Below, piece by piece: positions 30,930-33,348 of a stretch of DNA of 33,348 bases (within the stretch, counting starts at the first letter, position 1; the number at the start of each line of letters is the position of its first letter). The position numbers and the translations under genes were made by a program. Source of the DNA: Microcystaceae cyanobacterium (GTDB taxonomy: Bacteria; Cyanobacteriota; Cyanobacteriia; Cyanobacteriales; Microcystaceae). The stretch spans positions 1 through 33,348 of the forward strand of contig JBGTGT010000090.1 in NCBI GenBank assembly GCA_041746575.1. Reading direction: 5' to 3'. Below the pieces are notes generated by a model that was not told where the DNA came from, did not search any database, and saw only the letters and a list, made by a program, of their open reading frames with translations.

Positions 30930-31344
30930 TTATGGCTGTGCTTGAAGCTGAGAGACTAACCGTTGGCGCAGTTCGCTGGGTAGTAATACTCTATTAATGG
31001 CGTGAATAACGCCGTTGTCTGCCTGAATGTTAGCATAGACCACCTAGCATTATTGACAATTACTCTATCCGACTGAGTTAAGATAGAAACTCCACCCCCA
31101 AGGGTATCCACATTCCCTGTTGATAGCTCACTGGCAGTTACTTCTGCAGGAACAACGTGATAAGTTAGGACTTGCCTTGCTTAAGCAAATCTTTGTTCTC
31201 AGGCTGAAGCAACTATTCTAAGGCACCATCAGGTAGCTCGTTGAAGGCTTCATCGGTTGGGGCAAAAACAGTGTAAGGCCCTCCAGAAGCTAGCGTATTT
31301 TTGAGACCTGCGGCTTCTATCTCCTTGACTAGGGTATCAAATTC
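30930..31344 (-). pseudogene. Fasciclin (FAS1) domain gene, 5'-truncated and decayed
   Basis: [43 protein letters not shown]..(shift)VLTYHVVP..(shift)..DNGVIHAINRVLLP; stop at 31213-31215 and frameshifts near 31175 and 31043; homology begins abruptly at ~31344. Confidence 0.9.
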
Positions 31345-31385
31345 ACTCTAATCGATTCAAGGTACATACTGCCATAAGGACAAAA

Positions 31386-31420
31386 TAAAACCCTGAAACG
31401 CTTCTGAATTCAGGGTTTTA
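31386..31420 (-). terminator. Hairpin downstream of the IS110 ORF (terminator-like, within the element right end)
   Basis: TAAAACCCTGAA ... TTCAGGGTTTTA 12-bp stem followed by a T-rich tract on the minus strand. Confidence 0.55.
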
Positions 31421-31441
31421 GCGATTTATACTAGATTTAAG

Positions 31442-32689
31442 CTACAAACAGTATTGCTTTAACTCACGATATAAAAGGCGGGTTTCGTAGAAAAGTAAGC
31501 GACATATTCCATCTTTACCTAATGATTGGAAAGAAGGATGCTTAACAACTTCTAGCTTCTTTTTATGTCGGTTGTCGTAGGATGTCACTTCTCGTTCTCG
31601 TTCGTTAAACCATGCGTCTTTGAGTTCAGCAACAATTGCCGTTTGCGGCGGTCTTCGTCTCATACAAATAGTAACTAGTGCGTGTGCGTATAAATGACTC
31701 CGTACAATATCAGAACCTGACCAAGACTTCTTAATCTTGTTATCCTTGGCGGAAGTATCTCCAGATTTCTCGTAAGTAAAACCTAACCCTAAGAAGTGTT
31801 GAAACTGTCTCAATGATTGATCATGGCCATTTTTGCGATAAGGTTTTCCCTCAATCATAAAACGGTCAAAAGGATAACAATGAAGCAATAATAGGCTTTT
31901 CAAGACGATTCCATATTGAAAATTATCAAATACAGGATCATAGTTATTAAATTCTTTGATGATCTGGTTCAGATTTCTCTCTCTTTCTAAGATTCTCAAA
32001 GAATCTCTGACAATATCCTCTGCTAGGTCTTTAGAATAATGGTTTATTCCCGTTCCTATGGTAAAGTTTGGGAATCTTCGGTTAACAGTTTTACCTAGAA
32101 TATGCCCTAAAGTCGGGTTAACTCCATTTTTCCCAATATTTAAGAAGTTACGTTTAGCGATTTCGGGGTGTTCTCGTTCTAGGCGTTGCCTTAGTTGATT
32201 TATAAGGATATTTCGGTGCTTACAGATTTGTTCTCTTTCGTAAAATATATCCCTTACTTCATTAATTTTGTCATGGTTATATCTGAGCAGTAACGGCGGT
32301 CTGTCGTGTTCATCGTATCCTGTCTTAGCAAAATACATCATAGCAATGGTAAAAGCATCACTAGCATCGTCTTTATTTTTAAATTTGTAGTGTTTACGGT
32401 GCCATTTGACCGATTGATGGCTAACCCATCCAATTTCTATATCTAGCTTCTTGGCCTGATCGACCCAAAATTGAGAATACCAGTAACCTGTCGGCTCTAG
32501 GATAATCATCTTCGGCGCAAGTTCTGCCAAAAGCGCTAAACCTTCAGCGTTGTTGTTAAACCTATGTAGGTTTTTCTTCTTCAATTTCTCAAAAAGATTT
32601 ATGGGGGCGGTTTCTCCGTCGTACTCTTCTAGTAGAAAACCGACAGCAAAATTACGGCTTATATCTAAGCCTAAAACACGTTTTTTCAT
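31442..32689 (-). CDS. IS110-family DEDD recombinase/transposase
   Basis: RuvC-like motifs VLGLDIS, LEPTG, KDDASDA; coiled linker; C-terminal FLGLG...EKSGD with the catalytic-type serine; ORF intact. Confidence 0.9.
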   Translation of the reverse strand: MKKRVLGLDISRNFAVGFLLEEYDGETAPINLFEKLKKKNLHRFNNNAEGLALLAELAPKMIILEPTGYWYSQFWVDQAKKLDIEIGWVSHQSVKWHRKHYKFKNKDDASDAFTIAMMYFAKTGYDEHDRPPLLLRYNHDKINEVRDIFYEREQICKHRNILINQLRQRLEREHPEIAKRNFLNIGKNGVNPTLGHILGKTVNRRFPNFTIGTGINHYSKDLAEDIVRDSLRILERERNLNQIIKEFNNYDPVFDNFQYGIVLKSLLLLHCYPFDRFMIEGKPYRKNGHDQSLRQFQHFLGLGFTYEKSGDTSAKDNKIKKSWSGSDIVRSHLYAHALVTICMRRRPPQTAIVAELKDAWFNEREREVTSYDNRHKKKLEVVKHPSFQSLGKDGICRLLFYETRLLYRELKQYCL

Positions 32690-32720
32690 AGTAGAATTGG
32701 AGTTAATTAGATAAAGTGAT

Positions 32721-32890
32721 CCGTCAATGCCTTACGAAACTCCCGTAAGTATTCCTCTTACTTCACTCTAGAAGGCTATAGACGGTAAAAAAGCACCTAA
32801 TTAGCCTTACGAATGGTTTGCAAGCTATAAATAGCTTGATTTCTTTGTAAAAGGCAGTCTAGGACTAGGATAGGGTTTGGAAGCCTATCC
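32721..32890 (-). ncRNA. Bridge-RNA-like ncRNA of the IS110 element
   Basis: 5' hairpin (32868-32890), then two internal-loop modules (32804-32855; 32721-32785), each closed by GCCUU/AAGGC with a central hairpin between two single-stranded guides. Confidence 0.85.
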
Positions 32891-33095
32891 CCTTAGTCTC
32901 TCAATTCAATTGAGTTAAGAGACTAAGGGGGTGGGTTTCATTTGTTGAGATAAAGTATTGCCATCCTCCTTAAGTAATTCAATTTTTGTCTGTGTCATCT
33001 TTTTTTATCGATGTAGAATGAGAACATCATACAAAAAAAACGCCAAAAGCAATACTTTTTGTATGTAAATTTCTCTTAATATTTGAGGTTTAGGT

Positions 33096-33260
33096 ATGGT
33101 AGGTCGTAAAGGTGCTTCGGGTCGTCGTTTTGGCGTTCGCTCATTAAAAGTCAGAAAAATCCAAAGTAATATTACTATGACTCCAGAAGCTTGGGCTATA
33201 TTAGCTAAAAATGCTTACTTTTTAGCTCACCGCAGAGAAGCCCCGCGCTGTACCCGATAG
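33096..33260 (+). pseudogene. Small basic CopG/ribbon-helix-helix-like gene, probably interrupted at ~33225-33230
   Basis: MVGRKGASGRRFGVRSLKVRKIQSNITMTPEAWAILAKNAYFL then reads into the IS end; GAGG RBS. Confidence 0.45.
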
Positions 33261-33348
33261 GGTCAGCGTCGGGATGAAAGGCGGGTCATCGGTACTCCGG
33301 CTTGGAAAGCCGAGGCTTCCTCTGACTTCGTCAATTGAGGGGTTCAAT
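33226..33348 (+). mobile_element. IS200/IS605-family element end (runs off window)
   Basis: GAGAAGCCCCGCGCTGTACCCGATAGGGTCAGCGTCGGGATGAA subterminal imperfect hairpin typical of cyanobacterial IS200/IS605 ends; abrupt GC rise; second hairpin CGGCTTGGAAAGCCG. Confidence 0.65.

Follow-up and report, generated by a model that had tools for sequence, protein, structure and literature searches.

Does the gene of a distant cyanobacterial relative of the IS110 recombinases carry its own guide RNA and, if so, which DNA ends does this RNA specify? The question is raised by a stretch of about 170 nucleotides (nt) on the minus strand of contig JBGTGT010000090.1 (assembly GCA_041746575.1, a Microcystaceae cyanobacterium), which was analysed over positions 1 to 33,348 (the window hereafter). 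A first-pass annotation of the letters alone had interpreted positions 32721-32890 as a bridge RNA of the IS110-group layout (5' stem, target-binding loop, donor-binding loop) preceding a gene for a 415-amino-acid (aa) recombinase. This interpretation was borne out. The stretch is a genuine two-loop guide RNA, encoded ahead of the gene for a distant recombinase of the IS110 type, and all the hairpins and loops that had been described (5' hairpin, loop 1 and loop 2) are present on the minus strand.

The bridge RNA occupies positions 32717..32895 (minus strand), where a covariance model that includes this sequence in its seed gave a match of 133.4 bits. The 5' hairpin, as read in the sequence, pairs GGATAGG (32890-32884) with CCTATCC (32874-32868), and the closing stem of loop 1, read in the same way, pairs GCCTT (32855-51) with AAGGC (32808-04). 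Within loop 1, a 5' side, TTACAAAGAAAT (32850-39), and a 3' side, CAAACCATTCGT (32820-09), flank an inner hairpin (32838-21). Loop 2 lies within an outer stem formed by CCGTC (32785-81) and GACGG (32725-21), and is closed by GCCTT (32776-72) and AAGGC (32733-29); its 5' side, CTAGAGTGAA (32771-62), and its 3' side, GGGAGTTTCGT (32744-34), are separated by an inner hairpin at 32761-45. In both loops the 5' side ends in GAA and the 3' side contains TTC. The ATG of the recombinase gene, at 32689, is found 31 nt after the GACGG of the RNA. Guide conventions were taken from Durrant et al. 2024 (PMC11208160), in the available text of which the 5' sides of an IS110 bridge RNA read as the top strand of the DNA, core included, while the 3' sides pair with the top strand. 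Read in this way, loop 1 carries a left target guide with core, TTACAAA-GAA (32841..32850, minus strand), at positions whose equivalents are hypervariable in Microcystis-type relatives, and a right target guide (32809..32820) with the reverse complement ACGAA-TGGTTTG, so as to encode TTACAAA-GAA-TGGTTTG, a target written TTACAAAGAATGGTTTG. Loop 2 carries a left donor guide (32762..32771) and a right donor guide (32734..32744, reverse complement ACGAA-ACTCCC).

We then examined the structure by folding and by comparison with homologous loci. The 256-nt region folded at -78.7 kcal/mol, against -52.1 +/- 4.6 for shuffled sequences (n=200; z -5.8), none of the 200 being as good. Rfam contained no family for the region, nor did it give any match at E <= 0.1 on the loci of six relatives. 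The same layout was found upstream of Microcystis, Aphanothece and Chroococcidiopsis-like homologs, and alignment of homologous upstream regions produced a consensus fold with compensatory changes in 15/33 pairs. The covariance model, seeded with nine such regions including that of the window, gave 51 matches in 100 sources (427,616 bases) and placed the bridge RNA in front of the recombinase gene. Over 46 distinct rows, 92.4% of cells were paired and two-sided changes occurred in 30 of the 33 pairs, values taken on an alignment fitted to the model, which favours the structure; they were reached by none of 500 shuffles and approached by no slid register. The covariance-model test proposed in the first-pass annotation thus revealed a conserved structure with strong compensatory changes. 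One guide plan is common to the whole family: N7-GAA on the 5' sides and, on the 3' sides, N7-TTC followed by G/A-T, with GAT and ATC as the Microcystis forms of the two triplets. Near-identical stems close both loops, and these twin closing stems, from which the first-pass annotation had supposed a loop duplication, are a family-wide feature. Five public runs contain the stretch, all as contigs, and no RNA run is listed among them. The bridge RNA is presumably transcribed.

The recombinase gene (31442..32689, minus strand) had been presented as a candidate for a new recombinase subtype. Its 415-aa DEDD product proved instead to be a member of an existing NCBIfam family, NF051857 'transpos_IS110_2' (E 1.6e-78; 264.6 bits for a cut-off of 180), with residues 4-411 covering positions 1-392 of the 393 of the profile. 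By comparison, NF033542, NCBI's RNA-guided model, gave 45 bits only, Pfam PF01548 (DEDD_Tnp_IS110) gave 30.9 bits for a cut-off of 29, and PF02371 (Transposase_20) remained, at 15.1 bits, under its cut-off of 21.3. The library name of NF051857 is 'IS110 family transposase' and, unlike NF033542, the family is not labelled RNA-guided. Among 401 genomes sampled from the phylum, 49 gave a match to it (39 above the cut-off), as did three places in this genome (the window and contigs C26 and C66). A scan of the genome contigs with the single protein revealed no relatives, an alignment-based search being required. The window protein is an outlier, with <=34% identity to its relatives from the sampled genomes; the best database relatives are at 72% (a Xenococcus metagenome-assembled genome), 56% and ~50% (a large Microcystis/Aphanothece group), and 77 proteins were found at E <= 1e-10 in a large protein collection.

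Although a sequence profile gave no true match to chains of the PDB, the AlphaFold (AF2) model, with a mean local confidence (pLDDT) of 88.9, had as its best fold matches ISCro4 (9t56) and IS621 (8wt9 and 8wt6), at E 5e-8 to 7e-7, followed by Nop5, TasH and RuvC. The Foldseek alignment with IS621 extends over ~430 columns, that is over the whole protein. D9, E65, D108, D111 and the pair S309-G310 are invariant in 18 homologs. By analogy, the four acidic residues would be the catalytic DEDD residues, and S309 is the putative nucleophile; S309-G310 lie in a low-confidence stretch of the model (residues 309-314, pLDDT below 50).

If loop 2 is the donor loop, its 5' side should reproduce one end of the element. 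The DNA 3' of the recombinase gene ends in TTAGAGTGAA, and the left donor guide is identical to this right end, TAGAGTGAA, at 9/9 positions, in agreement with the left half of the donor inferred in the first-pass annotation. The right-end region (31342..31441, minus strand) includes a terminator-like hairpin (31386-31420) and terminates with TAGAGT-GAA (31350-31342), right ends being defined by flank divergence in the loci of ~28 relatives. In these ~28 Microcystis-type loci, all copies reach …TAAAGTGAT and then diverge, and their loop-2 5' side is TTAAAGTGA. Where a genome has several copies, they are alike over long distances upstream of the RNA but stop abruptly past the gene. The same agreement holds with other sequences, namely TAAAGTGA in Microcystis, TTAGATAGAA in Aphanothece and TTAGAAAGAA in locus L067, as well as in L066 and in the copies of genome G425 (AGAATAAA). 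A donor-loop 5' side equal to the right end plus core was therefore found in the window and in five other clades.

To the right of the element, positions 30936..31341 (minus strand) correspond to the 3' part of a disrupted fasciclin-like gene that carries stop codons. Intact genes from two genomes in the same family share 75-76% identity with this flank, the identity starting exactly at the junction, which places the boundary between element and gene at 31341/31342. The tblastn match of the disrupted gene falls into three pieces, and its 5' part was found on contig C89, where it ends …AAAAGTAGCGAAGAA/ACCCCTACGAAG… (a slash marks a junction). The two halves thus read ...AGCGAAGAA/ACCCCTACG on C89 and TAGAGTGAA/TTTGATACC in the window, and deleting everything between the two GAA cores restores the fasciclin-like reading frame exactly. 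The left end, GAA/ACCCCTACG, is located ~3.4 kb upstream. Past this end, C89 carries a Rep_trans gene (E 3.3e-15) followed by an open reading frame (ORF) of 160 aa without family. The last 141 nt of C89 and the last 127-141 nt of the window overlap the edges of a multi-copy TnpB element (OrfB_IS605, E 4e-24), and the shortest contig path gives an element of 5,053 bp. With its left end on C89, the element bears cargo and measures ~5 kb, rather than being the compact 1.6-kb insertion sequence (IS) initially supposed.

These junctions confirmed that the core is GAA and not CT: the triplet is present on both sides (C89:11304-11306 and window 31344-31342), without any longer target duplication, and the core of the right donor guide matches the DNA at 3/3 positions. 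They also corrected the other half of the donor. The guide predicts ACTCCCG, whereas the left end on C89 reads ACCCCTA, which agrees at positions 1, 2, 4 and 5 (4/7), position 6 possibly forming a G-T wobble; for the ACTCCC that had been announced, the agreement is 4/6 plus this wobble. The ACCCCT left end also occurs in Microcystis, with the same pattern of mismatches to the guide. Since the left end reads ACCCCTA, the circle junction should read TAGAGTGAA/ACCCCTACG, that is TAGAGT-GAA-ACCCCTACG, and not …ACTCCC, so that both the boundaries of the locus and the junction predicted for bench tests are amended. Among the other arrangements considered, the left target guide joined to the core and to the predicted right donor was sought with 2-3 mismatches allowed, and no such composite was found in the window, in the genome or in the Microcystis loci. 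The GAAAC and stem III of the hammerhead-like motif described below were rejected as core plus right donor, their fit across clades being too weak.

The Microcystis elements provided junctions that could be compared with an empty site. The right flank of one copy in genome G445 has a match in each of the 16 other genomes from the genus. In 7/7 loci inspected, the site was empty and read CCAGTTGAT/GTTCGG, the flank continuing leftward as …CCGCCAGTTGAT/GTTCGG…; another nine Microcystis genomes matched the flank but were outside these seven loci. In G445 the left sequence is located 8.7 kb upstream, joined as …CAGTTGAT/ACCCCTCACG…. The occupied copy has (T)GAT on both sides and ACCCCTCACG as left end, so that the core of this group, checked against the empty site, is (T)GAT. 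In a second genome the same left end, ACCCCTCACG, follows another GAT and a different flank.

We next compared the guides of loop 1 with the DNA flanking the elements. For 35 distinct pairs of right target guide and right flank, 129 matches were counted, compared with 68.9 +/- 6.7 expected from permutation, and none of 5000 permutations was as high. The total was taken as 245 positions (7 x 35), of which 243 are real because two guides have 6 nt. Ten loci without a right end in the fetched DNA were dropped, as were L021, L012, L015, L019 and L008 (incomplete loop strings), while L013, L009 and L066, the right end of which is probably mislocated, were kept although they count against the correlation. 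The right guide matches the flank at 7/7 positions in L131 and L153, and fifteen other relatives show 4-6 contiguous matches counted from the core. The left target guide has exact 10/10 matches to upstream DNA in L128 and L072, the only two relatives scorable as matches. The located left junctions associated with a bridge RNA fit the left guide poorly (4/7 in the window and, in our reading, 2/7 in G445); a third located left junction, in L062, belongs to a locus without bridge RNA and was hence unscored. The covariation of guides with flanks that the first-pass annotation had called for is therefore observed family-wide on the right side, and fails for the flanks of this copy.

Variation within the RNA is concentrated in loop 1. 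In 16 distinct Microcystis-type RNAs, identity was 72.3% and 62.9% for the two sides of loop 1, compared with 97.9% and 100% for those of loop 2 and 93.5% for the rest of the molecule; the same 16 RNAs contain 13 and 14 different loop-1 strings, versus 2 and 1 for loop 2. The left and right target guides vary independently, L133 and L134 sharing the right one only, and L140 and L136 the left one only. Among the near-identical elements of Microcystis-type loci L057-L143, the right flank was matched at 7/7 in L131 and at 5/7 in L133, L057 and L137. In three relatives (L139, L130 and L066), ACCCC(T/A) directly follows the right end, an arrangement corresponding either to tandem or circular forms or to insertions at donor-like sites.

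We consider it probable that the bridge RNA works with the 415-aa DEDD recombinase as the right-end module of a mobile element of ~5 kb. The RNA structure, the identity of the donor guide with the right end, the family-wide agreement of target guide and flank, the core standing at each junction and the enzyme's fold all argue for this. In such a scheme, loop 1 would be programmable for the target, each side contributing ~7 nt besides the GAA core, and loop 2 would hold the donor, its 3' guide pairing with the core GAA and the first bases of the left end. RNA and recombinase would together form the integration/excision module, placed at the right end of an element that would comprise, in order, the left end ACCCCTACG (C89), Rep_trans, the 160-aa ORF, a nested TnpB, small ORFs, the bridge RNA, the recombinase and the right end, the whole sitting inside the fasciclin-like gene. 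Several observations weigh against this scheme. The path from C89 to the window passes through the multi-copy TnpB repeat by 141-nt graph overlaps, and is an inference because this repeat has other exits (C88, C91 and C55). A promoter scan upstream of the bridge RNA gave 5 sites, against 4.6 expected from shuffled sequences. Between the right donor guide and the left end as located there are 2-3 mismatches, and the sole exact complement of this guide lies inside the element, just before the ATG, without a core. Right ends were located by the left donor guide itself, so that the flank test is independent for the target guide only, and the right flank is matched at just 0-2/7 positions in L105, L116, L122, L138, L130, L136, L135, L066, L139, L013 and L009 as well as in the window. 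Finally, the site actually occupied, TAGCGAA-GAA-TTTGATA, agrees with loop 1 at 4/7 positions on the left and 2/7 on the right, so the TTACAAA-GAA-TGGTTTG proposed in the first-pass annotation is not the site of this copy; nor does the genome contain any site with fewer than 2 mismatches to the encoded 17-mer. This misfit suggests either that the copy arrived by a poorly matched ('half-match') event, or that the loop has changed since. The flank itself has not drifted away from the guide, because its codons (F-D-T) are conserved in relatives.

The same misfit could mean that the copy, although its RNA and enzyme belong to the bridge type, is a stranded relic, brought to or fixed at a site beyond its recognition and no longer moving. 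The element is single-copy in this genome, which counts against the mobile module as well, a TnpB element is nested inside it, and the hammerhead-like motif of its relatives is not intact here; in addition, the stop codons of the disrupted fasciclin-like gene indicate that the insertion is not recent. However, the recombinase ORF is intact and has kept all the invariant DEDD and Ser-Gly positions of the 18 homologs, and all the stems of the RNA are intact as well. Recent activity is suggested by a solitary right-end copy of 55 nt, 100% identical, at C46:9554-9608. This fragment ends in GATTAGAGTGAA and is bracketed by GAA triplets, followed by TGGTTTT where the right target guide specifies TGGTTTG (6/7). 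It may be a reinserted product of the partial-circle type, and provides the sole hint that the target guide of this copy was used; an older right-end copy (88 nt at 80%, C38:505-592) also ends in GATTAGAGTGAA. In four of the five public runs (contigs only), we found repeat structure only, with no empty site and no circle junction. We infer that this copy is active, and regard a relic as possible but rather unlikely. A second explanation would retain a compact IS of ~1.6 kb with its left end at 32936 (…CAACAAATGAA/ACCCACC…), the upstream DNA being ordinary flank. At this position GAA is indeed followed by ACCCAC, GAAACCCAC has 2 mismatches to the prediction of the guide, and the preceding ACAAA-T-GAA is close to the left target guide, ACAAA-GAA, from which it differs by a single additional T. 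The halves of the interrupted gene exclude GAA/ACCCACC as left end, since the left half, on C89, is joined to GAA/ACCCCTACG and the frame closes exactly. Moreover, 81 nt spanning 32936 (32880-32960) recur at 100% on contig C66 in another context, and in the Microcystis relatives the bridge RNA likewise has an ACCCCT left end, located 7 kb upstream of it. A compact IS is thus quite improbable; the gene halves likewise exclude the 81-nt repeat shared with C66 as a target boundary. Least credible of all is that the structure is a regulatory element of the 5' untranslated region of the recombinase mRNA, guiding nothing. Its place directly before the ATG, and a pre-ATG motif complementary to one loop strand, would be in keeping with such a role, which nevertheless cannot account for one loop strand being equal to the right end in every clade, for another tracking the right flank, or for a hypervariability restricted to loop 1.

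The mobile module can be compared with the closest described systems of the IS110 type, among them IS621 (PMC11208160; 8wt6, 8wt9). According to the available portions of that paper, IS621 and the IS110 group resemble the present locus in having the RNA 5' of the gene, a 5' stem followed by a target loop and a donor loop, a variable target loop with a conserved donor loop, and the same guide-strand conventions; the recombinase of IS621 likewise has a DEDD fold. The differences concern the core (GAA or GAT here, CT in IS621), the 3' sides (up to 7 nt contiguous with the core here, 4-7 nt in all for IS621, in the same text), and the length of the recombinase (415 aa, against 326 aa given for IS621 in the accessible part of Hu et al., 10.64898/2026.08.14.744561). 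In addition, the protein is too distant for any sequence match in the PDB, and the element carries cargo. IS110 cargo loci, as described in the sections of Hu et al. (bioRxiv 10.64898/2026.08.14.744561) at hand, show boundaries fitting only half of the guides, the reuse of one terminus by partial circles, and fragments that have been reinserted; the available part of a companion preprint (Xie et al., 10.64898/2026.08.31.748434) gives the name half-match recombination. From these texts, the large cargo elements share with ours a recombinase and bridge RNA at one end of a multi-gene element, boundaries that fit part of the guides, and a short near-identical terminal fragment reinserted elsewhere. 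They differ in that their cargo consists of resistance genes, as opposed to Rep_trans and ORFs without family in an environmental cyanobacterium, and no circles were observed here.

The locus therefore encodes a bridge RNA and a recombinase of known kind, in a distant family not labelled as such, with a GAA core. A literature search combining bridge RNA, IS110 and cyanobacteria found nothing related. In a further preprint (10.64898/2026.10.21.760802), the accessible text of which treats hammerheads and bridge RNAs as separate topics, loci were chosen by PF01548 and PF02371, a filter that, judging from the profile scores, would mostly miss this NF051857 family. Our results suggest that the whole annotated family NF051857 is RNA-guided, though its library name is silent on this, with a GAA or GAT core and a recognition of roughly 7+3+7 nt. 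This would widen the set of natural bridge recombinases to be tried as programmable tools. The locus may also provide a natural example, outside clinical bacteria, of a cargo-carrying bridge recombinase at a site that the guides only half explain.

Two further motifs flank the RNA and provide testable hints about the production and control of bridge RNAs. In relatives, the bridge RNA carries a hammerhead-like motif fused directly to its 5' side (L011:1237-1315, L128:~2200-2280, L067:~1255-1305, L016, L020 and L009). It is composed, in order, of stem I, CUGANGA, stem II, GAAA(C), stem III, a UH triplet, then stem I again, which runs into the 5' hairpin of the RNA, elements that the relatives share with type I hammerhead ribozymes. 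A loose pattern was found in 21/48 distinct upstream regions and in none of 2400 shuffles, with U (12), C (6), G (1) or A (2) at the free position N7. A strict structural scan, judged too rigid, retained 8/48 (0/960 shuffles), the predicted cut being always 3 nt into the model start. The best Rfam match of the motif was RAGATH-1 (RF03152), with 28.4 bits, below the threshold of 56.3, and cleavage is predicted only. Neither the window nor the Microcystis group has an intact motif: the window keeps GAAAC and a long hairpin with no CUGANGA upstream, and Rfam found no hammerhead in it.

The second motif, AACTCC (32699..32704, minus strand), located 10 nt before the ATG, complements the right donor guide exactly, and will be called the anti-guide. 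In relatives too, the start codon is closely preceded by an exact complement of the loop-2 3' guide, 8-20 nt past the end of the RNA. The motif tracks the guide by clade (ACTCCC, ACACCC, TCACC, TCTCCC): a locus contains its own 6-mer in 22/43 distinct pairs and its own 5-mer in 33/43, compared with 4/129 for 6-mers of another kind. In the TCACCC clade, the full 6-mer was present in 1/15 only, shorter matches being common. Because no core adjoins the motif, we doubt that it is a recombination end, and it was rejected as the true left end, the geometry of right and left ends not fitting either. In a long transcript, the anti-guide could pair with the right donor guide. Taking these motifs together with the cargo, we put forward, as a possibility rather than a probability, that the module is the integrase of a small plasmid-like (Rep_trans) element, in a cyanobacterial lineage with three traits undescribed for bridge systems. 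A fused hammerhead would cut the 5' end of the bridge RNA from a longer transcript, and would have decayed in this copy; a conserved cis anti-guide would pair with the right donor guide, gating the donor loop or translation; and target loops would be rewritten quickly in nature, as suggested by the 13-14 guide strings on near-identical Microcystis backbones.

The interior of the element upstream of the bridge RNA (32896..33348, minus strand) ends at the contig end with the TnpB edge. It contains a 27-aa ORF (32998-32915), a 42-nt hairpin (32889-32930) and a divergent 54-aa ORF (33096-33260, plus strand). The TnpB sequence (IS605 OrfB / Cas12f-like TNB) is located at 33222-33348 of the window and at C55:17431-18961, and ends contigs C88, C89, C90 and C91; read depth over it is 3-4 times that of neighbouring sequence. 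An 18-nt inverted repeat (17/18 complementary) links 33046-33063, upstream of the small ORF, with 31443-31460, in the last recombinase codons. It has no counterpart in four relatives, and comparison of the right end with the upstream region of relatives for inverted repeats revealed nothing consistent.

Two other members of the family are present in this genome. One is located at C26:2051-3424. The other is a compact element at C66:85-1837 (minus strand), with the contig end at position 1, the recombinase of which is 25% identical to that of the window. Its right donor guide predicts TGACCAA, found ~60 nt upstream of its loop 1 (7/7), and the contig end, TTAGTAGGAA, is the counterpart of its left donor guide, AAGTAGGAA; both donor rules are followed in this element. 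A single repeated stem motif (GAGTCT with AGACGC) serves all four stems of its bridge RNA, and the element lies 25 nt after the 81-nt sequence that also precedes the bridge RNA of the window.

The cargo of the window's element differs from the upstream ORFs of its relatives: Rep_trans and the 160-aa ORF had no counterpart among 110 such ORFs (phmmer, E <= 0.01). In L208 (G445:C1:5263900-5272900) and many relatives, the bridge RNA is preceded by a conserved ORF of ~250-360 aa, without Pfam family. From Microcystis to distant clades (L013, L016, L019, L012, L031 and L015), this ORF is followed by two or three ORFs of ~100 aa, and weak NikA-like matches were detected in L016 and L013. Further upstream, divergent genes of the XRE/cI type, encoding helix-turn-helix proteins, were found in L129, L067 and L017.

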